Origin: Actinomycetota bacterium
GTDB lineage: Bacteria > Actinomycetota > UBA4738 > HRBIN12
DNA length: 47,546 nucleotides
Assembly (NCBI GenBank): GCA_049587975.1
Contig: JBAVEY010000016.1
Location: forward strand, 1-47,546
Direction: 5' to 3'
The stretch's first letter is position 1. Each line of letters opens with the position of its first letter. This document shows, piece after piece, positions 21,785-47,377 of the stretch. The position numbers were made by a program, and so were the translations under genes. Under the pieces are notes generated by a model. That model made no database searches and was not told the DNA's origin. It saw only the letters and a list, made by a program, of their open reading frames with translations.

Positions 21785-22407
21785 CTCGGCTTGCGGGCCA
21801 CGCAGATCGCGCGACCGTGATCGATCAGGACGTAGGTGAACCCGAACCAGCGTTCCCTCGGGAGCAGGCGCATCAGGTCCTGTTCGATCTTGTCGGGGTC
21901 GGACTCCTCGCTGAACCCCAGCCGGTTGGCGAGCCGCTTCACGTGGGTGTCGACCGCGATGCCCTCGACCTTGCCGAACGCGTTCCCCATCACGATGTTC
22001 GCAGTCTTGCGGGCCACCCCCCGCAGCGTGATGAGGTCCTCCATCGTGTCGGGCACGCGGCCCTCGTAGACCTCGACGATCCGGCGGCACGCCTCGCGGA
22101 TCGAGGTCGCCTTCTGGTTGTAGAACCCCGTGGGCTTGATATCGGCCTTCAACTCGTCCTCGGGGACCCGCAGGTAGTCCTCCGCGGACCGGTACTTCTC
22201 GAACAGCGTCGCGGTGACCTCGTTGACCTTCTCGTCCGTGCATTGGGCCGACAGGATGGTCGCGACGAGCATCTCGAGCGGGTTCGAGAAGCGCAGGGCG
22301 ACCCTGGCCTCCGGGTAGGCTGCCGACAGGATCCGGACGATCTCGGGCGTGCGCTCCTCGATCGGCGCGCTCCGGTCGAGCCCCGCGTCGGAACGCCGCG
22401 GGCTCAC
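21736..22407 (-). CDS. nth: endonuclease III
   Basis: HhH-GPD region (LITLRGVARKTANIVM) and Fe-S cluster loop CVARKPRCDECSVNHLC. GTG 22407 overlaps the upstream stop. Confidence 0.9.
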   Translation of the reverse strand: MSPRRSDAGLDRSAPIEERTPEIVRILSAAYPEARVALRFSNPLEMLVATILSAQCTDEKVNEVTATLFEKYRSAEDYLRVPEDELKADIKPTGFYNQKATSIREACRRIVEVYEGRVPDTMEDLITLRGVARKTANIVMGNAFGKVEGIAVDTHVKRLANRLGFSEESDPDKIEQDLMRLLPRERWFGFTYVLIDHGRAICVARKPRCDECSVNHLCPASLV

Positions 22408-24681: not shown

Positions 24682-24930
24682 CTAGGCGGGGTGCTCGTGG
24701 GGCTGCTCGAGCAGCGAGCGGAGGCGCTCGACGAGCTGGGGTGGTACGTGGTCACAGCCGCACTTGGCCCGCAGCATCTCCTTCAGCCGCCGCTGGAACA
24801 CCGCGTGCCCGCTGCAGGGATCGCAGCCGCCGAGGTGCCGGTCGATCTCGACACGCAGCGAAGCGACGAGCTCCCCATCGAGGTAGAGCTCGAGTTGCTT
24901 CAGCACGCGTTCGCAGTCAGTCGGTGACAA
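24682..24930 (-). CDS. rshA: ZAS-family anti-sigma factor (RsrA/RshA-like)
   Basis: C6, H32, C36 and C39 (TDCERV...[10 protein letters not shown]) reproduce the RsrA C11-H37-C41-C44 spacing. Including the conserved first Cys requires a TTG start at 24930, which overlaps the sigma gene 3' end by 14 nt. Confidence 0.85.
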
Positions 24931-25510
24931 GGCCTCGCTCCCGTACCGTCTCCCACAACGCCCGCTGCAGCGCTTTCCTTCCCCGGTGCAAGCGGGACAT
25001 CACGGTCCCGATCGGCACCTCGAGGATCTCTGCGATCTCCTTGTAGCTGAACCCTTCCACGTCGGCCAGCAACACGGCCATCCGGAACCCCTCCGGCAGG
25101 TCTTCCAGGGCCCGCTGAACGTCCTCGTCGGGGATCTTCTCGAGCACCTCGGATTCCGCCGACGCCTCCACGTTCGCGCCGCCGAGCTTGTCGTACAGGT
25201 ACCAGTCCGAGGTGTCGTCGTCCGGAACGGTGACGGGTTCCCGCTGCTTCTTGCGGTACGTGTTGATGAACGTGTTGGTCAGGATGCGGTAGATCCAGGC
25301 CCGCAGGTTGGTGCCCTCCTGGAAGCCGGCGAACCCGCGGTAGGCGCGCAGGTAGGTCTCCTGAACCAGATCCTCGGCGTCCTGGGGGTTCCTCGTCATC
25401 CGCAGGGCAGCCCCGTACAGGTTCGGGAGCAGCGGCAGGACCTCCCGCTCGAACCGCTCACGCAGGGCGGGGTCTTCCGGCGGCGCCACCTGGCTACGCG
25501 CCACCGCCAT
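24917..25510 (-). CDS. sigH: ECF sigma factor, SigH/SigR type
   Basis: Region 2 ([17 protein letters not shown]) and region 4 HTH ([28 protein letters not shown]). It is paired with a ZAS anti-sigma factor. Confidence 0.9.
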
Positions 25511-27660: not shown

Positions 27661-28574
27661 GGGCGGGCCGGGGGATCATCGGAGGGTTCGACGAGCAGGT
27701 CGAACCGGTCGCGGAACCGCTCCAGGAACCGGTAGTAGTTGCGCTTGGAGAGCCGGTCGCGTTCGGCGGGCGGGGTCGAGTGGTACATCCGGTGCTCGTG
27801 CTTGGCAACCGGAACGTCCACGCGGAGGGCCCGCAGGCCGCCGTCCTTGATGCGGAACGAGCACTCGATGTCGGCCGTCCGGTACCACCGGAACCTTTCG
27901 TCGAACAGCCCCACGTCGCGGATCACGTCCCGGCGGAAGGCCATGAGGTACCCCTCGATCGCGTCGACGAACGGCCCCGGGCTCTCGTGGAACTCGCGGA
28001 GGTCGGTCGTCGAGATGCCGAACGGACCGCACACCCCGACGGAGGGATCCGCCAGGGCGGCCTCCAGAGGGCCGAACACGTCCCCCGTCGGTTCGACCGA
28101 TCCGTCCATCGCCATGAGGACCCGGCCGCGCGAACGCTTCAGCGCCGCGTTCATCGCGGCGCCCCATCCCGTCCCGGCCTCGAGCTCGAGGATCTCGACG
28201 CCCTCGCCGTAGACCGACGGGTCCGTCTGCGTCAGGTCCGCGATCACGTAGCCGACGTCGCGCCTCCCCTCGTGCGCCCGGAACCCGGCGAGCGCGCGGG
28301 CCACGTCCTCGGGCCATCCCTCGACGACCCAGTGGACGCTCACGTCGCAGGTCGGGGGGTCGCCGAGCACGCTCGGGACGTCGTGCGCGCGCAGGCGCTC
28401 CGCCTCGGTCTCCACCACCGGCTCGAAGGATGTGCCCCCCGGTCCGTCGATGACGGAGAACCCGAGGTCGTGGATCCGGTCGCGGAGGACGTCCGCCGCA
28501 GCGAAGTCCTTGGCCCGGCGGCGCTCGTCGCGCTCGGCCCCAAGCGCGCGGACCTCGTCGGGGACGTCGGTCAT
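27657..28574 (-). CDS. GT2-like glycosyltransferase with an N-terminal CysRS-tail-like motif
   Basis: Core GTGWGAAMNAALKRSRGRVLMAMDGSV ... ADIECSFRIKDGGLR is GT2-like. The N-terminus ERRRAKDFAAADVLRDRIHDLGFSVIDGPGGTSF resembles the C-terminal tail of cysteinyl-tRNA synthetases. Confidence 0.7.
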
Positions 28575-28596
28575 GGCCTGCGCCCGAGCGACTGGA

Positions 28597-29016
28597 CTAG
28601 ACGGGCTCCCTCGAGACCGAGCGCAGGCGCCCGGCCACCGCCTCGAGCGTCTTGAGGGCGATCGTCGGATGCTCCATCAGCAGGCCTCGGAAGACCCACC
28701 CGGTGATCCCGACGAGGCGCACCGTTGAGAGCGCGGTCACCGTGGCGGTCCGAGGGCCGCCGTCGAGGAGCGCGACCTCGCCGAAGAAGTCGCCCGGGCC
28801 CAGGCGCGCCTTGGTCTTGCCGCCGATCGAGACCTTGCACTGACCATCGAGGATCAGGAACAGGCCGATCCCCCGCTCCCCCTCGCGGGCGATCACCGTG
28901 CCCTCCTTGTGCGTGACCTCTTTGGAGGCCCGCGCGATGATGCCGAGCTCCCGCTTGGAACACCCGGAGAAGATCGGGACGTTGGCCAGGTTGTTCGCGA
29001 CGTTCGGGACTGCCAC
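28597..29016 (-). CDS. stand-alone cyclic nucleotide-binding domain protein
   Basis: Contains GERGIGLFLILDG and FFGEVALLDGGPRTATVTA, with no DNA-binding domain. GTG 29016 lies behind the SD AGGAG. Confidence 0.8.
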   Translation of the reverse strand: MAVPNVANNLANVPIFSGCSKRELGIIARASKEVTHKEGTVIAREGERGIGLFLILDGQCKVSIGGKTKARLGPGDFFGEVALLDGGPRTATVTALSTVRLVGITGWVFRGLLMEHPTIALKTLEAVAGRLRSVSREPV

Positions 29017-29030
29017 CCGGTGCTCCTATC

Positions 29031-29065
29031 CTCGTCCTTCGGTTCGTCCTTCGGCTCGTCCCGGG
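29031..29065. repeat. about 2.9 tandem copies of a 12-bp unit (YTCGTCCTTCGG) in the 5' region of the cNMP-binding gene
   Basis: Copies are ctcgtccttcgg (29031-29042), ttcgtccttcgg (29043-29054) and the partial ctcgtcc-cggg (29055-29065). On the coding strand this reads CCGAAGGACGA(A/G) directly upstream of the SD. Confidence 0.7.
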
Positions 29066-29144
29066 CTCAGTCGGCCGGATCGCCCGACGGGCACGCGATC
29101 CTATCGCGATCGGATCGGCGGACGCGAACCGCTAGGATGGACGC

Positions 29145-29309
29145 GTGAGCGAACGGCGCCGGATCGCCGCGATCCTCGTCCTGTTCCTGATCGGGTTCGG
29201 CCTGATCGGGCTGGCGAACGCCCTGGACTCGACCTGGCCGTTGTTCGTCACGGTGATCCCCTACGCGGTGATCCCCTGGCTCGTCGTCCACGCAGACGAG
29301 CCGGCGTAG
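29145..29309 (+). CDS. possible 54-aa two-TM membrane protein
   Basis: GTG start. Sequence VSERRRIAAILVLFLIGFGLIGLANALDSTWPLFVTVIPYAVIPWLVVHADEPA. GC3 is high. It falls below the ORF-track length cutoff. Confidence 0.35.
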   Translation: MSERRRIAAILVLFLIGFGLIGLANALDSTWPLFVTVIPYAVIPWLVVHADEPA

Positions 29310-29319
29310 GCGCCCCGGA

Positions 29320-30327
29320 TCAGGCGGCTCGGCCCGGGTCGAGATACCCGCCCATCGTGAGCGCCATCAGCGCTTTGCCGGTGTGCATCCGGTTCTCCGC
29401 CTCGTCGTACACGACCGACCGCGGGCCGTCGATGACCTCGTCCGTGACCTCGTTCCCCCGGTCGGCCGGCAGGCAATGCATGTACAGGGCGTCCGGCTTG
29501 GCGAGCGACATCCGGCGCGCATCGCAGATCCAGTCCCGGTACGGCGTGGCGGCGGCCGCCGACGCATCGGAGAACGCGTCGAGCCGCCCCCACGACTTCG
29601 GGTAGACGACGTCGGCGCCGGCGAACGCGGCCTCCATGTCGTCCGTGTACTCGATCGAGCCACCCCCGCTCCGCGCCGAGGCCTCCGCACGCTCGCGGAC
29701 CTCCGGCATGACCTCCCACCCCGGCGGATGGGCCAGCACCACGTCGATCCCGAACCGCGGCAGCAAGGAGAGCAGGCCCTGCGCCACCGACAACGGCTTC
29801 GCGTAGGAGGGCGCGAACGCCCACGACACGGCGACCCGGAGGCCGCGGAGATCGTCCCCCCGATGCTCCCGGAGCGTCATGAGGTCGGCGAGCGTCTGGG
29901 TGGGGTGGTCGACGTCGCACTGCAGGTTGATCACCGGGACCTCGGCGTGACGGGCCACCTCACGCATGTAGGCGTTGCCCTCGTACGGGACCAGGTCGTG
30001 GCGGATCGCGATCCCGTGGCCGTACCTCGACAGGATGATGCCCATGTCCTTCGGGCTCTCCCCGTGGGCGACTTGGGTCTTGTCGGCGTCGAGGAAGTGC
30101 GCGTGACCGCCGAGCTGGGTCATCCCCGCCTCGAAGGCGTTCCGTGTTCGCGTGGACCTGTCGAGGAACAGCATGAAGAGCGTCTTGTCGGGGAGCAGCC
30201 GGTGCGGCTCGCCGGCCTTGAACCGCGCCTTGAGCTCGCCCGCGACGGCGAGCGCCTCGTCGATCTCCTCGGTCGACCAGTCGATCGTCTCGATGTAGTC
30301 CCGTCCACTGAGCGTCTTCCTGTCCAT
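29320..30327 (-). CDS. ygeW: knotted carbamoyltransferase, YgeW type
   Basis: Contains DRSTRTRNAF, GNAYMREV, NLQCDVDHPTQTLADL, SWAFAPSYAKPLSVAQG, VVYPKSWG and ALYMHCLPAD. These match my recollection of E. coli YgeW block for block. The SD GGAAGG precedes ATG 30327. Confidence 0.85.
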   Translation of the reverse strand: MDRKTLSGRDYIETIDWSTEEIDEALAVAGELKARFKAGEPHRLLPDKTLFMLFLDRSTRTRNAFEAGMTQLGGHAHFLDADKTQVAHGESPKDMGIILSRYGHGIAIRHDLVPYEGNAYMREVARHAEVPVINLQCDVDHPTQTLADLMTLREHRGDDLRGLRVAVSWAFAPSYAKPLSVAQGLLSLLPRFGIDVVLAHPPGWEVMPEVRERAEASARSGGGSIEYTDDMEAAFAGADVVYPKSWGRLDAFSDASAAAATPYRDWICDARRMSLAKPDALYMHCLPADRGNEVTDEVIDGPRSVVYDEAENRMHTGKALMALTMGGYLDPGRAA

Positions 30328-30350
30328 GTCACTGCCTTCCGTTTCGGTGA

Positions 30351-31367
30351 TCAGAACTGACCCTTCGCGAAGGCCTGGATCGTGGCTGGCACGTCGGGAC
30401 CGAGCGGGTACAGGACCGGGCAGGTGCACCCGTTATCGACGTACTCCCGCACCTTGGCGCGACACTCGTCCGCCGTGCCCGATGCCGTGATGAGCTGCAC
30501 GACCTCGTCGGGGACCAGTCGCATCGCCCGGCGGATCTCCTCGGGCCCGGCGGGCCACGTGAGGACCTCGCCGATCTCGTCGAGCAACGAGCGGTCCACG
30601 CCGCTCGCCTCCATGATGTGCGGCTGCTGACCCAGGTACTGCGTGACCAGCTCGCGGGCCCGGTCGAGTGCCACCTCGCGGTCTTCGTCGAGCGAGCACA
30701 CCACGAGCTGCGGCCGATCCACCTCCTCGATCGTTCGGCCCGCCCGAGCTGCGCCGTCGGCGAGCGCGGCCAACGCCCTGTGGTTGTAGGCCGGTCCGAC
30801 CAGGTAGTTGAGGAGCACGCCGTCGCCGATCTCCCCGGCGAGGGCAACCATCCGCATCCCGGTGGCGCCGATGTAGATCGGGACGTCCTTCGGCGAGCGG
30901 CTCCCGTGCACGATGTCGATCTCGATGTCATCGACGTCGACGAACCGCCCGTGGAAGCTCACGCGTTCCATCGCGAGGAGCTTGCGGACGGTCTCTACCG
31001 TCTCTCGCATGGCCTGCAGGTGGTGGTGGCGGCGGATGCCCACCTTCCTCGCGAGCGGGTCCCACCAGGCGCCGATGCCGAGGATCACCCTCCCGGGCGC
31101 GAGGTCGTCGAGCGTCGAGAACGTCGCGGCCAGCAGGCCGACGTTCCTCGTCCAGTTGTTCACCACGCCCGAGCCGACCCTGATGCGGTCCGTGACGGCC
31201 GCGTACGCGGCCATCGGGACGGTGGCCTCCCGCACCAGACGACTCTCCGCCTGCCAGACGGCCTCGAACCCGCACTCCTCCGCGATCTGCGCGTAGCGCA
31301 TCCCGTCGGCGATCGGATGCGCGTCCTGCAGGTACAGCCCGACCCGGCCCTGGCTCGATACCGTCAT
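30351..31367 (-). CDS. LLM-class (luciferase-like) flavin/F420-dependent oxidoreductase
   Basis: 338 aa of TIM-barrel LLM character ([26 protein letters not shown], a C-terminal region ending ...[17 protein letters not shown]). ATGA overlap with the ssnA-like stop. Confidence 0.85.
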
Positions 31368-32695
31368 CGCGATCCCGTCCTCGGTTCGAACGGATGGGGG
31401 CCGATCCGCTGGAGCTGGTCCCACAGCCGACGCGACTCCACGGCCGCCTTCGCCGCCAGCTCCTCCTGGTCGACGTTCATCAGCCGCCGATCCCGAACCA
31501 CCACGTCGCCGCCGACGAGCACGTCGCGCACGTTCCTGGACGACAGACCGAACACCCAGTGCCCGGGGAAACTCACCGCGTCGAGCGGCGCCGGAGGCTC
31601 GTACTCGAGGACGACCAGGTCCGCCGGTGCCCCCGGCACGATCGATCCGAGCGCGGGCTCCCCGAAGATCCCGCCCGCGAGACGCGCACCCTCGGCGAGG
31701 CGCGCGAGCGGCCATCCGGGCGTCGCGTCCAGGCCCTCCTCCCGCAGGCGCAGGAACGCGGTCCGCGACTCCTCGAACAGGTCGGCGCCGATCCCGTCGG
31801 TCCCGAGCGCCACCCGATCCAGCTCGGCGAGCTGTGGGCGGCCGACCGCGTTGTGCATGTTCGACCGTGCGTTGTGCGCGACCGTCGCGCCCGCCTCGCG
31901 GACCACGCCGGCCTCCCGCTCGTCCAGATGCACGCCGTGCGCGAGCAGTGACCGACGATCGAGGGCTCCCTCGAGCAGGAGCCGCTCCGCGACGCGCACG
32001 CCGAACCGCGCCTCGCAGTCGCGTTCGTCGACCGCATCTTCCGCGACGTGGATGTGGATCCCGACCTCCGCGCCGCGAGCGACCTCGACGCAGGCCGCCA
32101 GGGTCTCCGGCTCGAGCGTGAACGATGCGTGCCCGCCGACCATCCCGCGCGCGAGCGACCGGTGGTTCGCGGCCAGGAAGCGTCGGTTCTCCTGGACGCC
32201 GGCCGTCGCACGTTCGGGGCCGTCGCGGTCGGTGACCTCGTAGGACAGGACCGACCGGAGCCCGAGCGAACCGAACGCGTCCGCGATCACGTCGAGCGAT
32301 CCGTCGATCGCGTTCGGCGAGGCGTGGTGGTCGACCAGGGTCGTCGTGCCGACGAGCAGCGCCTCCATCCCGCCGACCAGCGCCGCGGCGCGCACCGTGT
32401 CCTCGTCCAGCGCGCGGTCGAGCCGCCACCAGACGCGCTGCAAGATCTCGAGGAAGTTCGCCGGCGGCTCGAGCTCGAACGGCATCCCGCGCGCGAGCGC
32501 CGAGTACACGTGGGTGTGTGCGCAGACGTTGCCGGGGATCACCACGCATCCGGAGCAGTCGATCGAACGCTCGGGCCCCGCGAGGGACGAACCCACCGCA
32601 GCCACGCGGCCATGTCGGATCAGGACGTCGGCATCCTCGACCGCGACGGGGTCGAGCGAGGTGACGACCCGGGCCCCCGCCAACACGATGCTCAT
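31364..32695 (-). CDS. ssnA: SsnA-type aminohydrolase (amidohydrolase superfamily)
   Basis: Contains [54 protein letters not shown] and [13 protein letters not shown]. This closely parallels my recollection of E. coli SsnA. ATGA overlap with the xdhD-like stop. Confidence 0.85.
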
Positions 32696-35337
32696 CGAGT
32701 GCCTTCCCGCGCCGCGGCGACCAGCCGTGGAGCCCGCCTCCGGGCCGCGGCGGCGAGCCGCGGGACGGCGGCGCGCGCCGCGGGCGAATCCTTCATCGGC
32801 AGCCGCGTCCGACGGATGCCGTCGAACGCGTACAGCGCGCCGGCGACCGCCGAGGCCGTCGGAACCAACGGTCCCTCGCCGACGCCCTTCGCGCCGTAGG
32901 GGCCCTCCGGCTGCGGCTCCTCCACCAGGATGCACTCGACCTCGGGCATCCCGGCCGGGGGGATGATGTTCAGCGACTTCAACGTGTCGGTCCTCGGCAC
33001 GCCGCCCTCGACCACGAACTCCTCGCTCAGCGCGTGGCCGAGACCCATGTGGATCGCCCCCTCGATCTGGCCCTCGATCAGCGTCGGGTTGATGGCCCGG
33101 CCCACGTCGTGCGCCGCCACCACCTTCACGAGGCGGCCCTCGTCGTCCAGGACGGCCACCTGCGTACACCACCCGTACGCGAGGTGGGTCACGGGCTCGG
33201 GGACATCGCTCTCGCTGGTCCAGTCGACGAGGAACTCACCCGAGAAGTCCCGGCCGGCGAGGTCCTGCATCGTCCCTCCGTCCAGCGCGGCCCGGAGCTC
33301 GCGAGCCGCCTCGATCACGGCCCGACCCCCGAGCGTGGTCGAACGTGACGCGGTCGTCTGCCCCGTGTCGAGCTCGCGCTCGGTGTCCACGCGGACCCGC
33401 ACGCGATCGGGCGTGAGCCCGAGCTCCTCGCACGCGATCTGCTGGAGCACGGTGTGGACGCCCTGGCCCATCTCGGTCCACGAGTGGAACAGCGTCACGG
33501 TGCCGTCGGCCTCGGGCCGCAGGATCGCCCGACCCCGCTCGGGGACGCCGTTGCCGATGCCGGTGTTCTTGACCCCGCAGGCGATGCCCGCGTACCGGGC
33601 CGTTCGGTAGGCGTCCCGAACCGCGAGCAGCGTCTCCTTCAGGCCGACGCCGGGACCGAGCACCTGTCCCGTGCCGAACCGGTCCCCGACGTCAAGGGCG
33701 TTCCGCCACCGGATCTCCCACCCGTCGATCCCGACCTCCTCCGCCAATCGGTCGAGCACGCCCTCCATCGCGAAGTTGGTCTGGTGCACACCGAACCCGC
33801 GCATCGCCCCGCACGGCGGGTTGTTCGTGTAGACGGCGCGCGCCTCGACGTCAACGTTCGGCACGCGGTACGCGCTGCACGCGTGACCCGCCGCCCGCTC
33901 CAGGACCTTGTCGCCCACGCTCGCGTAGGCGCCGGTGTCGCCGACGATCCGCGCCCGCACCGCGACCAGGTGCCCGTCCTCGTCGCACCCGGCCGTGTAC
34001 TCCATCGTGAGCGGATGGCGCTTCGAGTGGAAGGACAGGCTCTCCTTCCGCGACAACGAGAGCAAGACCGGGCGGCCGGTGCGGAGCGCGAGCAACGCCG
34101 CATGCCCCTGGACGTTGAGGTCCTCCTTCGCGCCGAACGCACCACCGGCAGAGACCTGCGTCACGCGGACGCGCTCTTCGGGAACCCCCAGGAACGAGGC
34201 CACCTGCCGGCGGTCCTCCCAGACGCCCTGACCGTCCGAGTAAACGTGGATGCGGGGGCCCTCGTCGCCGTGCGGCCCGGGGACGGCCAGCGACGACTCG
34301 GGCTCGAGGAAGGCGTGTTCGACGAACTGGGTTCGGAAGGTCTCGGTCACCACGTGCGCCGCCTCGCGGAGGGCGGCGTCGACGTCGCCGCGCTTCACCT
34401 CGGACGTGGAGAGCAGGTTGCCGCCCGGGTGCAGCTGGGGTGATCCGGCGGCGAGGGCCTCGAACGGGTCGGTGACCGGCGGGAGGTCCTCGTACTCGAC
34501 CTCGATCAGCGCCGCCGCCTCGCGGGCGCCCTGACGGGTCTCCGCGGCGACCGCGGCCAGCACGTCCCCGACGTACGACGTGATCTCACCCTCGGCCACG
34601 AACTGCCGCCAGTCCCGCGTGAGCACGCCCTGCGTCCGTTCGCCGGCGACGTCCTTCCAGGTGGTCACCGCGACCACGCCCGGAAGGGCCTCGGCCTTCG
34701 CGGTGTCGATCCGCAGGATCCGTGCCCGGGGGCGTCCGGCGAAGCGGATAGCGCCATGCAGCATCCCGGGGACCACCAGGTCGTTGACGAACGGCCGATC
34801 GCCCAGGGCCAGCAGCTCGCCCTCGTACTTTCCGGTCCGTGAGCCCACCCTGCCGCTCCGGTCGACCTCCAGCGTCCGATCGCCGCGCCGGGCGGCCGCG
34901 GCCGCCTGGACCGCGTCGATGATCTTCACGTAGCCCGTGCACCGGCACAGGTTCCCGGCGAGCGCGTGCGCGATCTCGTCGCGCGAGGGCGCGGGACGCT
35001 TGTCGAGCAGCACCTGCCCCCTCATGACGATCCCCGGCGAGCAGAACCCGCATTGCGCGGCCCCCGACGCCACGAACGCGTCGGCCCACAGGGCGCGAAC
35101 CTCGTCCGAGAGTCCCTCCTGCGTGACGACGCTCCGGCCCGCCGCCCGCTCGGCGGGCTGCGCGCACGACACCACCGCCTTGCCGTCGACGATGACGGTG
35201 CACGCGCCGCAGGACCCCTCCGGTGCGCAGCCGTCCTTCATCGAACGCAGCCCACAGCCCTCGCGCAGCACGTCGAGGAGCGTGGTGCCTTCCCGGAGGG
35301 GGACCTCCGCCATACGGCCGTTCAGGGTGAACCGCAT
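32692..35337 (-). CDS. xdhD: molybdopterin hydroxylase with fused N-terminal [2Fe-2S] domains (XdhD-like, 881 aa)
   Basis: Contains [19 protein letters not shown] and CRCTGY, then an aldehyde oxidase/xanthine dehydrogenase Moco domain ([14 protein letters not shown]...). No FAD subunit gene is adjacent. Confidence 0.9.
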
Positions 35338-35490
35338 CGAGACACCCTTCCCGCATCGGGCCTCGGGCCGCTCGCTGATCGAGCCTAGCCCCCGCCCCAC
35401 CGCCCGAACGGGGGCCGGTCGCCCCGCTCGGGACGGGGAGTCCGGCCCGACCCGGGCGGACGGCTGGAGCCGACACTTGCGGTGCCCCGA

Positions 35491-35506
35491 ATCGGCGATC
35501 GCCGAT
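35491..35506. promoter_or_regulatory. perfect 16-bp palindrome ATCGGCGATCGCCGAT in the divergent promoter region
   Basis: Lies in the 214-bp spacer between the xdhD-like (-) and PLP (+) operons, 45 nt upstream of ATG 35552. Confidence 0.4.
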
Positions 35507-35551
35507 GGGTTGAGACCGACGCGGGTGCTCGGACGCGAGCAGGAGGAGCCG

Positions 35552-37047
<1,496 letters not shown>

Positions 37048-37051
<4 letters not shown>

Positions 37052-38391
37052 GCGACCTCCCGAGCTCGCTGATCTGCTCCGGGTGCGGCTCTGCCGCAGG
37101 TCCCGAGGACCCGTACCCGTTCCGGTGCCCGAACGCCGGCCGGGCGGACGACGTCGACCACGTCCTGGTCCGCATCCTGGAGACGCCCGAACTGTCGTGG
37201 CCCGACGACGGGGGCGAGTCGAACCCCTTCCTGCGCTACCGGTCGCTCCTGCGCTCCTACCATCTGGCTCGCGCTCGAGGGATGGGCGACGACGAGGTGC
37301 GGGAGCTGATCTCGGACCTGGACATGCGGGTGGCGGCGGTGGATGGGCACGGGTTCCGCGCGACGCCGTTCACGCGGTCGGCCGAGCTCGGCAGGCGGCT
37401 TCGAGCCGCCACCGGCGGCGTGTGGGTGAAGGACGAGACCGGCAACGTGTCGGGCTCGCACAAGGCCCGTCACCTGATGGGGCTCGCTTTGCACCTGGAG
37501 ATCGTGTCGCGGCTCGGACCGTCCGGTCCCGGGCCGCCACCGCCGCTCGCGATCGCGAGCTGCGGCAACGCCGCGCTGGCCGCGGCGGTCGTGGCCCGGG
37601 CGGCCGGGTGGCCCCTCGAGGTCTTCGTGCCCGAGGACGCCGACCTCGCCGTCGTGACGCGTCTGAAGGAACTCGATGCCCGCATCACGACCTGCCCCCG
37701 CGAGGAGGGAGCGAGCGGCGACCCGACCCACCGACGGCTCCGACGGGCGGTCGCGGACGGAGCCCTGCCGTTCACGTGCCAGGGCAGCGACAACGGCCTG
37801 GCGATCGAGGGGGGCGAGACGCTCGGGTGGGAGATCGCCGACGCGATCCGGGCCTCCGGGGAGCGACTCGACCGCGTGATCGTGCAGGTCGGTGGCGGGG
37901 CGCTCGCCAGCGCGGTCGCCGGCTCGTTCCGCGAGGCCGTGGCGCTCGGCGCGATGGCCTCGGTGCCGCGCATCGACACGGTGCAGGCTGAGGGCGCCGC
38001 CCCGCTGCGCCGCGCCTACGAGCGCGTCGCGGCGCGGATCAGGGCGGGCGAGCCCCGGGACGAGGCGATGCGGTACGCCGCGACGCACCGCTCGAGCTTC
38101 ATGTGGCCCTGGGAGCAGGAGCCGCGGAGCGTCGCGCGCGGGATCGTCGACGACGAGACGTACGACTGGCTCGCGGTCGTGGACGCGATGCTCGCCACCG
38201 GTGGCTCCCCCCTCGTGGTGAGCGAGGCGCAGCTCCAGGACGCGAACCGGCTGGGACGGGAGAGCACGGGGATCGACGTCGACCACACGGGGTCGGCCGG
38301 GCTGGCCGGCCTGCTTGCGCTCGCGCAGGACGGATCGATCGCGACCGACGAGGTGGTAGCGGTGCTGTTCACCGGCATCCGCCGAACCTGA
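37048..38391 (+). CDS. fold-type II PLP-dependent enzyme, threonine synthase-like
   Basis: N-terminal Cys cluster CSGCGS...FRCPNAG, PLP-lysine context [12 protein letters not shown], and [10 protein letters not shown]. The GTG start overlaps the upstream TGA (GTGA, 37048-37051). Confidence 0.8.
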
Positions 38392-38407
38392 AGGAGGAGG
38401 GAACGAC

Positions 38408-39364
38408 ATGCGCAGCTTCTTGGGACGAGACATCCTCTCGCTGAAGGACCTCGAGCGCGACGAGTACGCTCACGTGTTCGAGGTGGCCGACAAGCTCGCG
38501 CCGTTCGCGAGGGATCGGCGCAACGGGGAGCTCCTACGGGAGAAGACCCTGGTGACGGCCTTCTACCAGCCGAGCACCCGGACGCGCCTGGCCACCGAGG
38601 CCGCCATGCACCGGCTGGGCGGCCACGTGGTCGGGTTCTCGGACGCCAAGATGACCCGGGCGGGCGACTTCTACAGGGAGTCGATCAAGGACACGGTCCA
38701 CATGCTCGAGTACTACGGCGACGTGATCGCGATGCGGCACTTCGAGCAAGGCGCGCCCGCCGAGGCCGCCCGATGGGCCTCGGTGCCCGTCATCAACTGC
38801 GGGGACGGCTGGGGCGAGCACCCAACCCAGGTCCTGACCGACCTGTACACCACGTGGAAGGACAAGGGCCGGCTCGACGGGCTCACGTTCCTGCTCGTTG
38901 GCGACATGCGGATGCGGACGATGCACTCGATCCTGTACGCCTTCTCGCAGTTCGACGTGCGGGCCTTCGTGGTTGCTCCGCCGGAGATGTCGCTCCTGCC
39001 CGAGTTCACCGCCGAGCTCGACGAGCGCAACGTCCAGTACGAGGTCGCCGAGAGCGTGGAGAAGGTCATCGACCAGGCCGACGTGATCTACATGGAGCCC
39101 GTGGTCCAGGCCGACTACACGAAGTCGCTCGACGAGCGCGCCGCGGGCGAGCTCCCGACGACCGCCGACGCCTACCGCGTCACCCGGCAGCTCCTGCGTG
39201 ACCGGGCCAAGAGCGACGCGATCATCCTGCACTCGCTGCCGCGCATGGACGAGCTGCCGTCCGACGTCGATGCCACGCGTCACGCCCGCTACTGGTTCGA
39301 GGCCTTCAACGGCGTGGTGACGCGGATGGCGCTGCTCTCGCTGGTCCTCGGCGCCGAGGGGTAG
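38408..39364 (+). CDS. aspartate carbamoyltransferase-like transcarbamylase (atypical second-substrate motif)
   Basis: Contains PSTRTR, EHPTQ and HSLPRMDEL, as in ATCase catalytic chains. YMEPVVQADY replaces the canonical YMTRVQKER. The strong SD GAAGGAGGAGGG precedes ATG 38408. Confidence 0.85.
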   Translation: MRSFLGRDILSLKDLERDEYAHVFEVADKLAPFARDRRNGELLREKTLVTAFYQPSTRTRLATEAAMHRLGGHVVGFSDAKMTRAGDFYRESIKDTVHMLEYYGDVIAMRHFEQGAPAEAARWASVPVINCGDGWGEHPTQVLTDLYTTWKDKGRLDGLTFLLVGDMRMRTMHSILYAFSQFDVRAFVVAPPEMSLLPEFTAELDERNVQYEVAESVEKVIDQADVIYMEPVVQADYTKSLDERAAGELPTTADAYRVTRQLLRDRAKSDAIILHSLPRMDELPSDVDATRHARYWFEAFNGVVTRMALLSLVLGAEG

Positions 39365-39609
39365 ACGGCCACCGGCCGCCTCCTCGGGGCCGACTCCCTG
39401 AGGCGCCGTTCGACGCGCCCGAGGATGCGACGCTGCCGGGCGAGACGCTCCTCGAGGCGCTCCACGTGCAGCGCGATGCGCCTGCGCACGATCTCGGGAT
39501 CGTCGGCTCCCAGGAGCGCGCCGATGTCCTTGGGGGACATCCCACATGCGCGGAGCGCCACGATCGCCCACCCAGAGGCAGGTCCGTCCATCCTCTCGTT
39601 CATCGTCAT
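39289..39609 (-). CDS. possible small HTH-like protein coupled to the ECF41 sigma gene
   Basis: ATG 39609 overlaps the sigma stop (ATGA). The segment IVALRACGMSPKDIGALLGADDPEIVRRRI resembles a sigma region-4/LuxR-type HTH. The last 76 nt overlap the convergent ATCase-like gene, so the true extent is uncertain. Confidence 0.4.
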   Translation of the reverse strand: MTMNERMDGPASGWAIVALRACGMSPKDIGALLGADDPEIVRRRIALHVERLEERLARQRRILGRVERRLRESAPRRRPVAVYPSAPRTSESSAIRVTTPLKASNQ

Positions 39610-40550
39610 CGGCGGATCGCTGCCGGTCCCGCCGGGCCGACGTTCGCGCCGAGGTGCCGGAGCTTGTCCGGGTTGCTGACGAACCGTACCGTCTGCACGA
39701 GATCGTCGGCGATGTCCAGCGTCACCACGGCCACGGGCCGCCCCTCGGGGTCGAGGAACACGGCGCCCGGCTGTCCGTTGATCGCCACGGAACGCATCCC
39801 CGCCACCGCCAGTCGCTCTCGGTTCCTCTGGGCCGCGGGCCCGAGCAACAGGCGCGCGATCCGTTCCCTGCCGTAGACCGGACGCGGGAGCGCGGGGGCA
39901 CGGCCGCCACCGTCCCCGTACGCGACGACGTCCGCGGCGAGCAGGCTCTCGAGCCCGGCCGCGTCGCCCTTGGTCACCGCCTCGAAGAACCGCCGGGCGA
40001 GTTCCTCCCGTCGCATCCGTGAGGCCTGGAACCGCGGCCGCTTCGCCTCGATCTGACGACGCGCGCGCACGGCGATCTGGCGACAGTTCTGTTCGCTCTT
40101 GCCCACGATCGGAGCGATCTCGTCGTAGCCGTAGTCGAAGACCTCCCGCAGCAGGAAGACGGCACGCTCGACCGGCGAGAGGCTCTCGAGCAGGACCAGG
40201 AACGCCATCGAGAGCGAGTCCGCGGTCTCGGCATGTTGCGCGACGTCGGGAGCCGTGTCGGTGAGCAGCGGTTCCGGCAGCCAGGTGCCGACGTAGCGCT
40301 CCCGGCGAACGCGAGCCGAGCGGAGGTGGTCGATGCTGAGCCGCGTGGTGACCGCCGACAGGTACGCCTTCGGCGAGTCGACCACGGTCCCCCTCGCCGT
40401 CTCACGGTGGAAACGCAGGAACGCCTCCTGGACGATGTCCTCGGCCTCGCTCGCGGTGCCGAGCATCCGATAGGCGATCGAGAACATCAGCGGCCGCAGA
40501 TCCTCGTACAGCTCGCCCACGCGGGCCTCCCGTCGATCGCTAGCTCCCAT
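39606..40550 (-). CDS. ECF sigma factor, group ECF41 (SigJ-like) with a fused SnoaL-like C-terminal domain
   Basis: Regions 2 and 4 (DIVQEAFLRFH; FDYGYDEIAPIVGKSEQNCRQIAVRARR) plus a ~120-aa extension ending ..VRFVSNPDKLRHLG. No anti-sigma gene is adjacent. Confidence 0.85.
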   Translation of the reverse strand: MGASDRREARVGELYEDLRPLMFSIAYRMLGTASEAEDIVQEAFLRFHRETARGTVVDSPKAYLSAVTTRLSIDHLRSARVRRERYVGTWLPEPLLTDTAPDVAQHAETADSLSMAFLVLLESLSPVERAVFLLREVFDYGYDEIAPIVGKSEQNCRQIAVRARRQIEAKRPRFQASRMRREELARRFFEAVTKGDAAGLESLLAADVVAYGDGGGRAPALPRPVYGRERIARLLLGPAAQRNRERLAVAGMRSVAINGQPGAVFLDPEGRPVAVVTLDIADDLVQTVRFVSNPDKLRHLGANVGPAGPAAIRR

Positions 40551-40562
40551 GCTGCCACCTAT

Positions 40563-40589
40563 GACGAGATAGCCGCCTGATCCGTGACA
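40563..40589 (-). promoter_or_regulatory. ECF41-type promoter upstream of the sigma gene itself
   Basis: The minus strand reads TGTCACG-N16-CGTC (40589 down to 40563), ending 12 nt before ATG 40550. The reported ECF41 consensus, from memory, is TGTCACA-N16-CGTC. Confidence 0.5.
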
Positions 40590-40617
40590 CCTCCCTTCGC
40601 GGAGGCGGCCACTCCTC

Positions 40618-40666
40618 CCGAAGTGTCACACCGGCCGAAGTGTCACACCGGCTCCGTTCCCTCGTC
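40618..40666 (+). promoter_or_regulatory. duplicated ECF41-type -35 boxes (perfect 17-bp tandem repeat) with a downstream CGTC
   Basis: CCGAAGTGTCACACCGG occurs at 40618-40634 and again at 40635-40651. The second TGTCACA (40641-40647) is followed after 15 nt by CGTC (40663-40666). Confidence 0.55.
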
Positions 40667-40700
40667 TCGTGTTGAGAGAACGATGCGAGAGGAGGTCGTG

Positions 40701-40979
40701 ATGAACCTCGACGTGATCGATGCCGAGAAGCGCGCTGGAGCGTCCGCGGGCATCCCGGCGGGAAACGTCTGGGCGATGCCATCGCAGCGGAGCGTTCGAG
40801 ACGAGCCCGAGGCAGGGCGCGAACAGAAGCCCGGTGTGCTCTGGCGGGTCCTGTGCGTGGTGATCGGGGCCGGGCTCGTCGTCACCGGGTGGGCTTTGAT
40901 GATGACGGCGATCCTGTCCTTCATCGGGCTGCCGGTCTTCATCTTCGGGCTGGCGCTGATGCAGAGCGCGGAGCGCTAG
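40701..40979 (+). CDS. small two-TM membrane protein (92 aa)
   Basis: ATG 40701 lies 5 nt after the SD GAGGAGG. The hydrophobic C-terminal half is VLWRVLCVVIGAGLVVTGWALMMTAILSFIGLPVFIFGLALM. It is downstream of the ECF41-type promoter. Confidence 0.55.
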   Translation: MNLDVIDAEKRAGASAGIPAGNVWAMPSQRSVRDEPEAGREQKPGVLWRVLCVVIGAGLVVTGWALMMTAILSFIGLPVFIFGLALMQSAER

Positions 40980-41022
40980 CGAGGAGTGACGTCGGCTCGG
41001 CCAGATGAAGGGGATCGAGCGA

Positions 41023-44978: not shown

Positions 44979-46601
44979 GTGACCGAGCGAACCCCTCCCC
45001 CGTCGATCGAAGAACGAAGGGGCGATGGATCCACCCCTCGCGGACTCGATCTGGGATCCGAAGGTTCGGGTGGCTCCACAGGGTCGGCGTGGGGCGGTGC
45101 GGCGATCGGCTTGGTCGCCGCAGGGGTCGCGATCGGCGTCGCGCATCTGGTTTCCGGCATCGTCAACCCGCAGGCATCTCCGGTGATCACCGTCGGTCAG
45201 ACCGCGATCGACGCAACACCGGAGTGGCTCAAGAGCTGGGCGATCCGGACGTTCGGCCACAACGACAAGACCGTGCTCGTGGGCGGCATCTACTTGGTGC
45301 TCGCCGTGGTCGCCCTCGCCCTCGGCATCTTGTCGATCCGGCGCCCGCAGATCGGTATCGTCGGTCTCGCGGTGTTCGGAGGGATCGGCGTGTTCGCGGC
45401 GCTCACGCGCCCGAACGGCACACCGTCCGACGCCGTTCCCGCGTTCGCGGGTTTCCTGGCCGGGAGCGGCGCGTTCTACATGCTCCGGAGCACCTGGTCA
45501 CTCCCCGAGCCAGCCTGGAACGGCGACGACCCGCGAGCGTTCGATCGGCGTCGGTTCCTGGTGGCCGGTAGTGCGGGAGTTATCGTCGCCGTGGTCGCTG
45601 GCGCGACAGGTAGCGTGCTCGGCCGGCGCTTCCTCGCCAACGCGTCGAGGGCAGCCGTTGCAGTCCCGTTGCCGGCGAGCCCCGCGACGGCAGCCTCCCT
45701 GATCGACCTCCACGTGCCGGGTCTGGAGCCGTTCATCACGCCGAACGATCGCTTCTATCGTGTGGACACGGCTCTCCTGGCCCCCGCCGTCATGGCGGAG
45801 GACTGGAGGCTCCGGATCCACGGGATGGTGGATCGAGAGTTGACGATCGGATACCAGCAACTGGTCCAACGCCCTCTGATCGAGCGCGACGTGACGCTCG
45901 CCTGCGTATCGAACACCGTCGGCGGACGGTACGTGGGTAACGCGCGCTGGATCGGGGCCCCGCTCGCGGACCTGCTCCTGGAGGCGGGCGTCCATCCGGG
46001 CGCCGACCAGATCGTCTCCCGTTCGGTGGATGGCTTCACGGTAGGAACGCCGACCGCGATCGCGATGGACGGTCGGGATTCGATGCTCGCGATCGCGATG
46101 AACGGAGAGCCCCTGCCCATCGACCACGGCTTCCCGGTCCGGATGATCGTGCCCGGCCTCTACGGCTACGTCTCTGCGACCAAATGGATCGTGGACATCG
46201 AGCTCACGACCTTCGACGCCTTCGACCCGTACTGGGTGCAGCGTGGGTGGGCCGAGCGGGCGCCGGTCAAGACGATGTCCCGGATCGACACCCCGAAGCC
46301 ATTCGCAACGGTGCGCGCGGGGAACGTTGCGGTAGCGGGTGTCGCGTGGGCCCAACACCGCGGGATCGAGCGCGTAGAGCTCCAGGTCGACGAGGGGCCG
46401 TGGATGACCGCGGAGCTCGCGGCCGAGGACACGATCGACACCTGGCGTCAGTGGGTGGTGCCGTGGGACGCGACGACCGGTGACCACCGGCTCCAGGTCC
46501 GCGCCACCGACCTGACCGGCGCGACGCAGCCAGAGGAGCGGGTGCATCCGTTCCCGAACGGCGCGACCGGCTGGCACTCGGTGGTCCTCAGCGTGACCTG
46601 A
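44979..46601 (+). CDS. membrane-anchored molybdopterin-dependent oxidoreductase (sulfite oxidase/YedY superfamily)
   Basis: N-terminal multi-TM segment, then an Oxidored_molyb-like core (FYRVDTAL...CVSNTVGG...NGEPLPIDHGFPVRMIVPGLYGYVSATKW). GTG 44979 lies behind the SD GGAGG, but the start is uncertain. Confidence 0.8.
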   Translation: MTERTPPPSIEERRGDGSTPRGLDLGSEGSGGSTGSAWGGAAIGLVAAGVAIGVAHLVSGIVNPQASPVITVGQTAIDATPEWLKSWAIRTFGHNDKTVLVGGIYLVLAVVALALGILSIRRPQIGIVGLAVFGGIGVFAALTRPNGTPSDAVPAFAGFLAGSGAFYMLRSTWSLPEPAWNGDDPRAFDRRRFLVAGSAGVIVAVVAGATGSVLGRRFLANASRAAVAVPLPASPATAASLIDLHVPGLEPFITPNDRFYRVDTALLAPAVMAEDWRLRIHGMVDRELTIGYQQLVQRPLIERDVTLACVSNTVGGRYVGNARWIGAPLADLLLEAGVHPGADQIVSRSVDGFTVGTPTAIAMDGRDSMLAIAMNGEPLPIDHGFPVRMIVPGLYGYVSATKWIVDIELTTFDAFDPYWVQRGWAERAPVKTMSRIDTPKPFATVRAGNVAVAGVAWAQHRGIERVELQVDEGPWMTAELAAEDTIDTWRQWVVPWDATTGDHRLQVRATDLTGATQPEERVHPFPNGATGWHSVVLSVT

Positions 46602-46615
46602 GCGGAGAGCGGACG

Positions 46616-47377
46616 ATGAACGGGGGGTATCGCGTGGATCGAGGAAGTGCATCCCTCGGCTCGATGAACGCGAGACGTGCCACGATGTGGGAGATGGCGC
46701 TGCCGAGGGTCCTCGTCGTGGACGACGAACCGATGGTGCGTGAAGTGCTCTCGAGGTACCTGCGTCGCGATGGGTTCGAGGTCGCCACGGCTGCCGACGG
46801 CGAGGAAGCCCTTGCCCGCTTCGGCGAGACGGAGCCAGACCTCGTTCTCCTCGATCTCATGCTCCCGCGTGTCGACGGATATGAAGTCTTCCGCCGCCTG
46901 AGGCAAAGGGCTCCGACCCCGGTGATCATGCTCACCGCACGCGGAGAAGAAACCGACAGGATCGTCGGACTCGACCGCGGCGCCGATGACTACATCGGCA
47001 AGCCATTCTCTCCCGGGGAGGTCGTGGCCCGTGTCCGGGCCGTGCTCCGGCGCGTCGGACCGGGCGATCCTATACCGGAGGTTCTCGACCTCGATTGGCT
47101 CGAGGTCGAGACCGAGCGACGCGTGGTGCGGGTGAACGGTGAGCCGATCTCGCTCACCCGCAAGGAGTTCGACCTCCTGCACCACTTCGCGTCGCATCCG
47201 GGGATCACGCTCACTCGATCGCAGCTCCTCGAGGACGTATGGGACTTCGCGTGGGACGGCGACAGCTCGACGGTGACGGTGCACGTGCGACGGCTGCGCG
47301 AGAAGATCGAGGCCGACCCCTCGGCGCCGGTCCATCTGCTCACGGTATGGGGCGTCGGCTACCGGTTCGAACCATGA
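46616..47377 (+). CDS. OmpR-family response regulator
   Basis: Receiver domain (VLVVDDEP...DLVLLDLMLP) plus a winged-helix output (LTRKEFDLL...VWGVGYRF). The start could also be ATG 46685 or 46694. Confidence 0.85.
   Translation: MNGGYRVDRGSASLGSMNARRATMWEMALPRVLVVDDEPMVREVLSRYLRRDGFEVATAADGEEALARFGETEPDLVLLDLMLPRVDGYEVFRRLRQRAPTPVIMLTARGEETDRIVGLDRGADDYIGKPFSPGEVVARVRAVLRRVGPGDPIPEVLDLDWLEVETERRVVRVNGEPISLTRKEFDLLHHFASHPGITLTRSQLLEDVWDFAWDGDSSTVTVHVRRLREKIEADPSAPVHLLTVWGVGYRFEP

Follow-up and report, generated by a model that had tools for sequence, protein, structure and literature searches.

Uric acid is degraded reductively in E. coli and Clostridium through a pathway that was reconstituted in 2025 and runs from urate via 2,8-dioxopurine, ureidomethylhydantoin, 2,3-diureidopropionate and 2,3-diaminopropionate to pyruvate (Li et al., 2025, PMC12507026; Liu et al., 2025, bioRxiv 10.1101/2025.04.24.650524; for homologues see also PMC12990295). 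Urate is reduced to 2,8-dioxopurine (“yanthine”) by XdhD-YgfM, or by XdhAC in clostridia, and 2,8-dioxopurine is in turn reduced by YgfK or UacX; SsnA then opens the ring to ureidomethylhydantoin, which HyuA converts to 2,3-diureidopropionate (PMC12507026; bioRxiv 10.1101/2025.04.24.650524). One ureido group is removed phosphorolytically by YgeW, with YqeA using the carbamoyl phosphate to form ATP, and the other is hydrolysed off by YgeY; diaminopropionate is finally turned into pyruvate by YgeX. Which of the ureido groups is cleaved first is disputed in the literature. Here we analysed a 47.5-kb stretch of DNA from an Actinomycetota bacterium (contig JBAVEY010000016.1, positions 1 to 47,546; in the following “the window”), which carries a seven-gene cluster at 29320-39364. 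The cluster encodes an XdhAC-type molybdenum enzyme with iron-sulfur domains (FeS+Mo), an SsnA-like amidohydrolase, a luciferase-like oxidoreductase of the F420 type (LLM), two transcarbamylases (TC1 and TC2) and two pyridoxal phosphate (PLP) enzymes (PLP1 and PLP2). We propose, with a probability of about 0.7, that these seven genes form a non-gut, soil-bacterial variant of the reductive uric-acid (2,8-dioxopurine) pathway.

In the proposed route, the FeS+Mo enzyme would act as a urate 6-dehydroxylase that forms 2,8-dioxopurine by stripping urate of its 6-oxo group. The Mer-like LLM would reduce and dearomatise this compound with F420H2, in place of YgfK (E. coli) or UacX (clostridia), and the SsnA homologue would hydrolyse the reduced ring to a ureido-hydantoin or ureido-dihydrouracil. 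A hydantoinase would open the second ring to 2,3-diureidopropionate, TC1 and TC2 would remove both ureido groups by phosphorolysis with formation of carbamoyl phosphate, and PLP2 and PLP1 would take the part of YgeX and turn 2,3-diaminopropionate into pyruvate and ammonia. Since relatives encode an adjoining carbamate kinase, up to two ATP per urate might be recoverable. A sequence-only reading of this locus had anticipated the catabolism of an N-heterocycle via ureido intermediates, including phosphorolytic decarbamoylation and a PLP-dependent end step, and this general idea was right. Its order of hydroxylation, ring hydrolysis and reduction was wrong, as the Mo enzyme is predicted to be a reductive 6-dehydroxylase and reduction precedes ring hydrolysis. 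Its statement that YgeW and SsnA have no defined substrates has been superseded by Li et al. (PMC12507026) and Liu et al. (bioRxiv 10.1101/2025.04.24.650524).

Related loci and the upper half of the proposed pathway

Relatives were collected by scanning the SsnA-like protein over one genome per species, which gave 262 relatives, and the best 80 loci were kept. Their contents were determined by tblastn with the window proteins and E. coli references, and neighbouring genes were assigned with curated models and Pfam. The SsnA proteins of these 80 loci are 60-72% identical to the window SsnA and all come from metagenome-assembled genomes (MAGs), mostly of Actinomycetota (Gaiellales, Thermoleophilia), Chloroflexota (Chloroflexia, Limnocylindria, Dormibacterales) and Armatimonadota. 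Counts out of 46 refer to the loci in which SsnA has at least 7.5 kb of sequence on either side, drawn from the best 80 of 262. The sequence-only reading had named gene-neighbourhood conservation beforehand as a test that it could fail; all seven functions were kept in 41 of the 46 loci. Taken singly, the XdhAC-type enzyme, PLP1, PLP2 and TC2 were each present in 44 loci and a TC1-type gene in 45. LLM occurred in 35 and UacX (PF01180 plus Fer4) in 11, with no locus having both and none having neither. When loci were reached via PLP1 or PLP2 instead of SsnA (n=7), six had SsnA/XdhAC cluster genes alongside and one, L084, had none. These counts together show that the cluster is strongly co-conserved across phyla.

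The usual order in the relatives, on one strand, is PLP1-PLP2-TC2-XdhAC-SsnA-LLM-(XDH)-TC1-(CK), where XDH stands for xanthine dehydrogenase and CK for carbamate kinase. Loci of the Chloroflexia type are divergent like the window and have UacX, with its DHO_dh and 4Fe-4S domains, after SsnA; the divergent layout of the window recurs in L081, a relative with 90% identity. Several neighbours place the relatives' clusters in purine catabolism. A three-subunit PucD-type xanthine dehydrogenase was found in about 18-22 of the 46 loci (840 bits, cutoff 784) and an 8-oxoguanine deaminase (NF006055; 635 bits, cutoff 532) in about 12. The product of 8-oxoguanine deaminase is urate, and oxidised guanine may be a physiological feed of the pathway. 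The deaminase gene lies in or beside the PucD-type XDH operon at L059:3490-4851 and likewise in L001, L013, L034, L037, L047, L068 and others. L086 has an adenine deaminase together with a Bmp-type nucleoside ABC transporter, and L047 and L091 have NMT1-type ABC transporters. None of these purine and transport neighbours occurs in the window. Carbamate kinase follows the transcarbamylases in 31 of the 46 loci (379 bits, cutoff 266), and YgfM-like genes were seen in two. D-hydantoinases of the HyuA type (TIGR02033; 456 bits, cutoff 393) are encoded in a few loci (L002, L003, L005, L015, L034, L071, L086).

Compared with the E. coli cluster ygeW-ygeX-ygeY-hyuA-yqeA...ygfK-ssnA-ygfM-xdhD (PMC12507026), the window shares an SsnA homologue, a YgeW-type transcarbamylase and a Mo enzyme beside SsnA, and it would share the logic of Mo-dependent dehydroxylation, reduction, ring hydrolysis, carbamoyl-phosphate formation and a PLP-dependent end step. 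In contrast to E. coli, it lacks YgfK, YgfM, HyuA, YgeY, YgeX, YqeA and YqeB/C, its Mo enzyme belongs to TIGR03311 and not TIGR03313, and it has an LLM reductase, a second, ATCase-like transcarbamylase and two unrelated PLP enzymes instead. The upper half is recognisably that of the known pathway, and the lower half, consisting of TC2, PLP1 and PLP2, would replace YgeY and YgeX.

The Mo enzyme passes the family model TIGR03311 (Se_dep_XDH) with 978 bits against a cutoff of 830. According to Pfam (Fer2, Fer2_2, Ald_Xan_dh_C, MoCoBD_1/2), two 2Fe-2S domains are fused to the molybdenum cofactor (MoCo) part and an FAD domain is absent; no FAD subunit for the enzyme is encoded in the window. With TIGR03313, the family of E. 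coli XdhD, it scored only 247 bits against a cutoff of 1102, and its identity is 30% to E. coli XdhA and 27% to E. coli XdhD. The earlier label “XdhD-like” was therefore right for the Mo-hydroxylase clade but not for the type. Motifs covering 17 residues, and the motif GVGE, are kept in the orthologues and differ from those of the PucD-type XDH in the same loci. At family level only, the protein is a candidate for a molybdenum enzyme dehydroxylating urate. Its combination of FeS and MoCo domains without FAD resembles XdhAC (= DOPDH) of C. sporogenes and C. difficile, whose pathway further comprises YgfK or UacX, SsnA, HyuA, YgeW or UacY, YgeY and YgeX. The published DOPDH signature is F1009V and A1078T/S in the numbering of bovine XOR. 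The clostridial enzyme is, however, selenium-dependent, with yqeB/yqeC/selD in the genome, whereas yqeB/yqeC are not near any of the best 80 loci.

For the amidohydrolase, SsnA is by far the best family: the models NF005540 (SsnA) and TIGR03314 scored 415 bits (cutoff 444) and 385 bits (cutoff 455), and the next family only 161. Over its full length the protein shares 36.5% identity with E. coli SsnA, and the metal ligands HxH, H, H and D are invariant. It can be regarded as a divergent SsnA, so that the previous assignment holds at clade level, by a wide margin over other families, and falls narrowly short of the curated cutoff.

LLM is a member of PF00296 (232 bits). Its top 16 NCBIfam models are all F420-dependent LLM families and all score under their cutoffs, the best being Mer (178 bits against 276), followed by 166. 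The closest solved structures are also F420-dependent Mer (8qq8, 5e-39). F420 use by LLM is therefore suggested by family resemblance, and a role as 2,8-dioxopurine reductase would fit the Mer-like nature of the protein, as Mer reduces a C=N bond with F420H2. No homologue of YgfK or UacX is present in the window cluster, where LLM directly follows SsnA. In clostridia the reductase step is interchangeable between YgfK and UacX, and in the 11 relatives with UacX this gene occupies the slot after SsnA that LLM has in the window, beside SsnA orthologues that are 63-69% identical to the window SsnA. Because LLM and UacX share this slot after closely related SsnA genes and exclude each other, LLM is likely an analogue of the 2,8-dioxopurine reductase. 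In one full cluster (L089:9211-9861) a gene for F420_oxidored (PF03807, an Fno-like NADP-F420 oxidoreductase) lies immediately upstream of PLP1, and this fits a supply of F420H2 for LLM.

The LLM substitution that had been read from the window is real but not new. Li et al. (PMC12507026) mentioned, in one sentence and in the colouring of a sequence similarity network, Chloroflexota SsnA neighbourhoods with a putative F420-dependent luciferase-family dehydrogenase instead of YgfK/UacX, the same substitution beside SsnA as here. They place it in Chloroflexota, whereas in the loci studied here LLM is found mainly in Actinomycetota (Gaiellales, Thermoleophilia) and many Chloroflexia use UacX. A full-text literature search retrieved no other paper that links F420 and SsnA. 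Li et al. did not distinguish TC2 or the two non-YgeX PLP enzymes, since their neighbourhoods were scored by Pfam only (PF00185 as YgeW and PF00291 as YgeX), and the replacement by TC2, PLP1 and PLP2 is not described in published work.

Transcarbamylases and PLP enzymes of the proposed lower half

TC1 shares 38-40% identity with E. coli YgeW and 32% with ArgI. It has the YgeW motifs HGES, GNAYMREV, NLQCDxDHPTQ, SWAxxPSYxKPLSV, VYPKSW and MHCLPAD, and the alignment shows that it lacks three YgeW insertions as well as the DxxxSMG motif of ornithine transcarbamylase (OTC). Several NCBIfam models score TC1 nearly equally, namely an OTC subfamily (261 bits, cutoff 306), YgeW NF005538 (242, cutoff 453) and TIGR03316 (229, cutoff 500). 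The YgeW assignment thus stands at the level of the clade, on motifs and identity, while both YgeW equivalog models remain below cutoff and the three insertions are missing, so that by these cutoffs TC1 does not count as a YgeW equivalog.

TC2 is 40% identical to E. coli PyrB, the aspartate transcarbamylase (ATCase), and of the same length class. It passes the ATCase model TIGR00670 (248 bits against 237) but fails NF002032 (220 against 263). All tested motifs of the carbamoyl-phosphate site (STRTR, HPxQ, HxLPR) are present, with STRTR, HPTQ, R167 and H(S)LPR kept. R167, R229, Q231 and K84 serve in aspartate binding by E. coli ATCase, and of this set TC2 keeps only R167; its second-substrate site is remodelled. 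In the alignment with PyrB, R229 and Q231 are changed (TRVQKER to TKS[L/R]DER) and S80 and K84 are not kept; the orthologues have K or A at 229, L or R at 231 and Y/F at 84. In addition, a conserved insertion of eight residues, EPVVQxDY, precedes position 229 at the aspartate pocket. The thought that TC2 has lost the positive charge of the aspartate site was weakened, as most orthologues read TKSRDER, with K and R nearby. Unlike PyrB, TC2 is always tied to PLP1 and PLP2, often with a carbamate kinase, and not to pyr genes.

Two relatives, L046 and L055 (the latter one of the 46), are the only loci without TC2 and also the only ones with a homologue of YgeY, an M20-family protein. In L046:1696-4229 and L055:1641-4139 the YgeY-family M20 gene and a longer, more typical YgeW (362 bits) stand in place of TC2 and TC1, with PLP1, PLP2, XdhAC, SsnA and UacX kept. 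This displacement indicates that TC2 takes the step of YgeY, the removal of the second ureido group, by phosphorolysis and not by hydrolysis. Its target is probably the 2-ureido group, which is favoured because N-carbamoyl-alpha-amino acids closely resemble carbamoyl-aspartate; 3-amino-2-ureidopropionate and 2,3-diureidopropionate are candidates of this kind. TC1 would phosphorolyse one ureido group of 2,3-diureidopropionate and TC2 the second. In comparison with clostridia, the hydrolytic UacY/YgeY would be replaced by phosphorolytic transcarbamylases and YgeX by PLP1 and PLP2. The arrangement also resembles systems of the arginine deiminase type (catabolic OTCase with carbamate kinase), in which ureido phosphorolysis yields carbamoyl phosphate coupled to a kinase, as shown by Liu et al. 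for YgeW/YqeA. In contrast to these systems, the relatives have two transcarbamylases of different subfamilies before one kinase, and the window has no kinase gene. Two transcarbamylases before a single kinase point to harvesting of both ureido groups of one substrate.

Both PLP1 and PLP2 are fold-type-II PLP enzymes without a named subfamily: the fold and the catalytic Lys and Asn-loop are kept, and the scores stay far under the CysK and ThrC equivalog cutoffs. PLP1 matched PF00291 weakly (41 bits) and had CysK as its best NCBIfam model (71 bits, cutoff 351). It has N- and C-terminal extensions of about 100 residues each, with extra helical segments in the AlphaFold2 model (pLDDT 86.9), for which Foldseek gave CysK, cystathionine beta-synthase (CBS) and beta-cyanoalanine synthase as top matches (TM about 0.8, 20-29% identity). 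K112, S140-T-G-N143 and the G258-S-x-G-T262 loop are invariant, so that the catalytic set is complete. PLP1 is about 70% identical across Actinomycetota, Chloroflexota and Armatimonadota and occurs in more than 8000 90%-identity clusters, which suggests either strong constraint or that the cluster has spread laterally in recent times. At E<=1e-30 the family collapses to 388 50%-identity clusters. An apparent PLP1 fusion protein (P0006/P0007, 665 aa, on 4.6-kb contigs) contains an internal duplication of about 165 residues and is most likely an assembly artefact, not a domain fusion.

PLP2 matched PF00291 with 130 bits, and threonine synthase PRK08197 was its best NCBIfam model (79 bits, cutoff 303). 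An N-terminal Cys3-His ribbon precedes the PLP fold; in the AlphaFold2 model (pLDDT 85.1), Foldseek found threonine synthases and then serine racemase, threonine deaminase and aspartate racemase. Residues C10, C13, C27, H38, S137-H-K139 and S171-C172-G-N174 are invariant. In an hhalign alignment, C172 of PLP2 falls on Asp120 of E. coli YgeX, a residue which we take to serve the D-isomer, and PLP1 does not align with YgeX in this way. Of the two, PLP2 is the one more like YgeX. Asp120 and Lys77 are reported as catalytic residues of YgeX (PMC4000059). Searches of the PDB by sequence and by fold returned no close characterised relative of either protein. No homologue of YgeX or YgfK was found by tblastn in any of the best 80 of 262 loci, and since PLP1 and PLP2 are found in every place where YgeX is to be expected, together they appear to take its step. 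One might act as a racemase and the other as a lyase, one might form serine by beta-replacement for the other to dehydrate, or the two might form a heteromer. A replacement of the hydantoinase by the PLP enzymes was also considered and rejected, as the loci that contain HyuA keep both PLP genes.

Gene layout and surroundings in the window

All seven open reading frames were recovered in the window (about 70% GC), with a strong GC3 coding signal in the open reading frame listing and GC3/GC2 coding-potential scan (Table 1), and their domain content in Pfam and NCBIfam agrees with the domain labels they had been given from sequence. The two divergent operons and all three start/stop overlaps that had been described were confirmed in the sequence: TCAT, which is ATGA on the minus strand, occurs at 32692-32695 and 31364-31367, at both ends of the SsnA-like gene, and a GTGA overlap at 37048-37051 joins PLP1 to PLP2, so that the operons are translationally coupled. 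Ribosome-binding sites of the GGAGG type precede the start codons of PLP1 and TC2, with GGAGGAG upstream of the ATG at 35552. Presumably the promoters of both operons lie in the intergenic region between them. No sigma-70 consensus was present there, and the scan for sigma-70 promoters and terminators gave nothing above chance. Rfam had no match in 28000-41000, and the divergent intergenic regions shared no common motif beyond the closest relative. As these scans were empty, no riboswitch or operator can be proposed.

Table 1. Positions of the seven cluster genes and of the region between the two operons in the window
Feature	Coordinates	Strand	Length
TC1, short YgeW-like transcarbamylase	29320-30327	minus	335 aa
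LLM, luciferase-like F420-type oxidoreductase	30351-31367	minus	338 aa
SsnA-like amidohydrolase	31364-32695	minus	443 aa
FeS+Mo XdhAC-type molybdenum enzyme	32692-35337	minus	881 aa
Intergenic region between operons, divergent	35338-35551		214 bp
PLP1, CysK/CBS-fold PLP enzyme	35552-37051	plus	499 aa
PLP2, ThrC/racemase/dehydratase-like PLP enzyme	37048-38391	plus	447 aa
TC2, ATCase-like transcarbamylase	38408-39364	plus	318 aa

The usual partners YqeA, HyuA, YgeY, YgeX, YgfK, YgfM, YqeB and YqeC were reported as absent by the sequence-only reading, and tblastn over the 47.5-kb window, with a positive control for YqeB/YqeC, agrees; MocA homologues were not found in the window either. The cluster in the window also contains no regulator or transporter, as stated before, and some relatives have ABC transporters beside it. 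The rest of the window holds no purine, F420-biosynthesis or selenium genes. Exact-sequence look-ups of the window SsnA, TC2 and PLP1 gave no record, and the genomic context was therefore drawn from relatives.

The cluster is flanked on one side by genes for FtsH, a GT2-like protein and a cyclic nucleotide monophosphate (cNMP)-binding protein, and on the other by an extracytoplasmic function (ECF) sigma factor fused to a SnoaL-like domain (39606-40520, minus strand), which lies directly beside it. These flanking genes are unrelated to the cluster and conserved with it only in the closest relative. Just downstream of TC1 are the cNMP-binding-domain protein (139 aa, 28597-29016, minus) and a hydrophobic open reading frame of about 54 aa (29146-29310, plus), which are conserved only in the closest relative, L081, and do not accompany the cluster elsewhere. 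A second ECF sigma factor (24682-25510, minus) is paired with a zf-HC2 anti-sigma factor; neither ECF system is conserved with the cluster. The window further encodes an unrelated M20 peptidase (2244-3587), 26 kb from the cluster, which itself is without YgeY and YgeX. The Bpa proteasome activator (PF10759, 174 bits; 3635-4111, plus) is an actinobacterial marker and, with the nearest relatives, suggests that the source is an uncultured actinomycetote. A uracil-DNA glycosylase-family gene (19870-20526, minus) and an endonuclease III gene (21736-22407, minus) lie close together on either side of a GDPD phosphodiesterase. Another Mo enzyme, unrelated to the first and of the sulfite-oxidase type (Oxidored_molyb plus Mo-co_dimer, preceded by about 220 N-terminal residues that match no model; 45111-46601, plus), is followed by an OmpR-type response regulator (46685-47377, plus).

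Alternative explanations and implications

Several observations weigh against the proposed urate pathway. Every substrate assignment rests on homology or context, and SsnA, TC1 and LLM score under their curated equivalog or subfamily cutoffs, and TC2 scores above the cutoff of one ATCase model. We assume from the matching domain architecture that the characterised XdhAC of C. sporogenes belongs to TIGR03311. The pathway requires a hydantoinase, but HyuA is not encoded in the window; it is present in three of the 46 full loci, as well as in L002, L034, L071 and L086, and missing from 43 of the 46. In most genomes it is probably encoded elsewhere. The window likewise has no gene for a carbamate kinase, a urate transporter or an electron-transfer subunit. 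Genes for yqeB, yqeC, mocA and NCS2 permeases were absent from all fetched loci, in a search whose positive control worked (no selD search was made), and the absence of yqeB and yqeC, selenium-cofactor genes that go with the gut clusters, speaks against the proposal. Furthermore, two PLP enzymes are conserved where one would suffice, and in L084 (L084:3375-14097; ENA ERZ25039471 contig_9149) the triad PLP1-PLP2-TC2 and a carbamate kinase occur with no SsnA/XdhAC within 10 kb. The TC2 of this locus is 82% identical to the window TC2, and the triad adjoins a Liv-type ABC transporter and an AsnC regulator. The lower sub-module can thus stand alone.

L084 also raises the question whether there are two pathways here, a urate module of XdhAC, SsnA and LLM (with TC1) and a self-standing PLP1-PLP2-TC2 module (with carbamate kinase) that handles an imported amino acid with a ureido or N-carbamoyl group, for example albizziin, and whether these modules adjoin only as both feed one kinase. 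The halves do form separate divergent operons in the window, and conservation of the PLP1 family, with about 70% identity between phyla, is unusually high. We nevertheless consider such a split unlikely, because PLP1, PLP2 and TC2 accompany SsnA in 44 of 46 loci, six of the seven loci reached via the PLP enzymes carry SsnA/XdhAC cluster genes, and most loci have PLP1-PLP2-TC2-XdhAC-SsnA-LLM as a single array on one strand; without a YgeX/YgeY alternative in those loci the upper module would have no lower half, and L084 was viewed over only 10 kb on each side of its position in a 5.6-Mb contig. The same architecture could otherwise act on another substrate, i.e. xanthine, 8-oxoguanine, a methylated purine or a pyrimidine-like compound. 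Sub-cutoff scores of SsnA, TC1 and LLM and the low identities (36% to E. coli SsnA, and 27-30% to XdhD/XdhA for the Mo enzyme) would allow this, and with HyuA, YgeY, YgeX and the selenium-maturation genes missing the lower chemistry could differ. Yet the relatives place PucD-type XDH and 8-oxoguanine deaminase, both of which yield urate, in the same arrays, UacX, which is the characterised clostridial type of 2,8-dioxopurine reductase, replaces LLM beside 63-69% identical SsnA orthologues, and L046 and L055 keep YgeW and YgeY, which makes a different substrate quite improbable in our view.

We give very little credence to a chance grouping of housekeeping genes, in which TC2 would be PyrB, TC1 ArgF, PLP2 ThrC and PLP1 CysK next to an unrelated Mo enzyme, even though TC2 passes TIGR00670, the top model of TC1 is an OTC subfamily and source databases name PLP1 “cysteine synthase” and PLP2 “threonine synthase”. 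The other equivalog cutoffs are missed widely (CysK 71/351, ThrC 79/303, OTC 261/306), TC2 lacks R229, Q231 and K84 and TC1 lacks the OTC motif DxxxSMG. Synteny is moreover kept across at least three phyla together with carbamate kinase, and no pyr, arg, thr or cys biosynthetic neighbours are found in the window. Best hits to ordinary OTCase, ATCase or deaminases, which had been named beforehand as speaking against the cluster, were obtained only nominally for TC1 and TC2, and not for SsnA or the Mo enzyme.

Within the proposed reductive urate pathway, a more specific reading of the lower half as new is tentative, and we hold it to be somewhat less probable than even: both ureido groups would be recovered as carbamoyl phosphate, giving two ATP per urate and not one, D-2,3-diaminopropionate would be degraded by a two-PLP system in which an invariant Cys of PLP2 stands at the position of YgeX Asp120, and a Mer-like LLM would be an F420H2-dependent 2,8-dioxopurine reductase. 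If true, and with yqeB/yqeC absent, a pathway thought to be confined to anaerobes and to be selenium-dependent could operate in soil Actinomycetota and Chloroflexota that contain F420 and are probably aerobic. The resemblance of TC2 to ATCase would then also argue that the 2-ureido group is the second to be removed, which would support the cleavage order of Liu et al., and the loci provide a natural experiment on which ureido group goes first.

The reductive urate pathway, when described in 2025, was presented as a trait of the gut and of anaerobes, and a related form is abundant in metagenomes from soil, where PLP1 alone accounts for more than 8000 90%-identity clusters and at least three phyla carry the genes. 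The MAG screen of Liu et al. asked for at least four of seven proteins above identity thresholds such as 63% for YgeW, 53% for YgeY and 50% for YgeX (bioRxiv 10.1101/2025.04.24.650524). As the variant described here would fail these thresholds, it was likely missed by published screens. Public annotations, which name TC2 aspartate carbamoyltransferase, PLP1 cysteine synthase and PLP2 threonine synthase, are mislabelled. The cluster offers four candidate new activities, namely an F420-dependent 2,8-dioxopurine reductase, an ATCase-like ureido-amino-acid transcarbamylase and two unnamed PLP subfamilies, and as a variant of the known pathway it is genuine and widely distributed.

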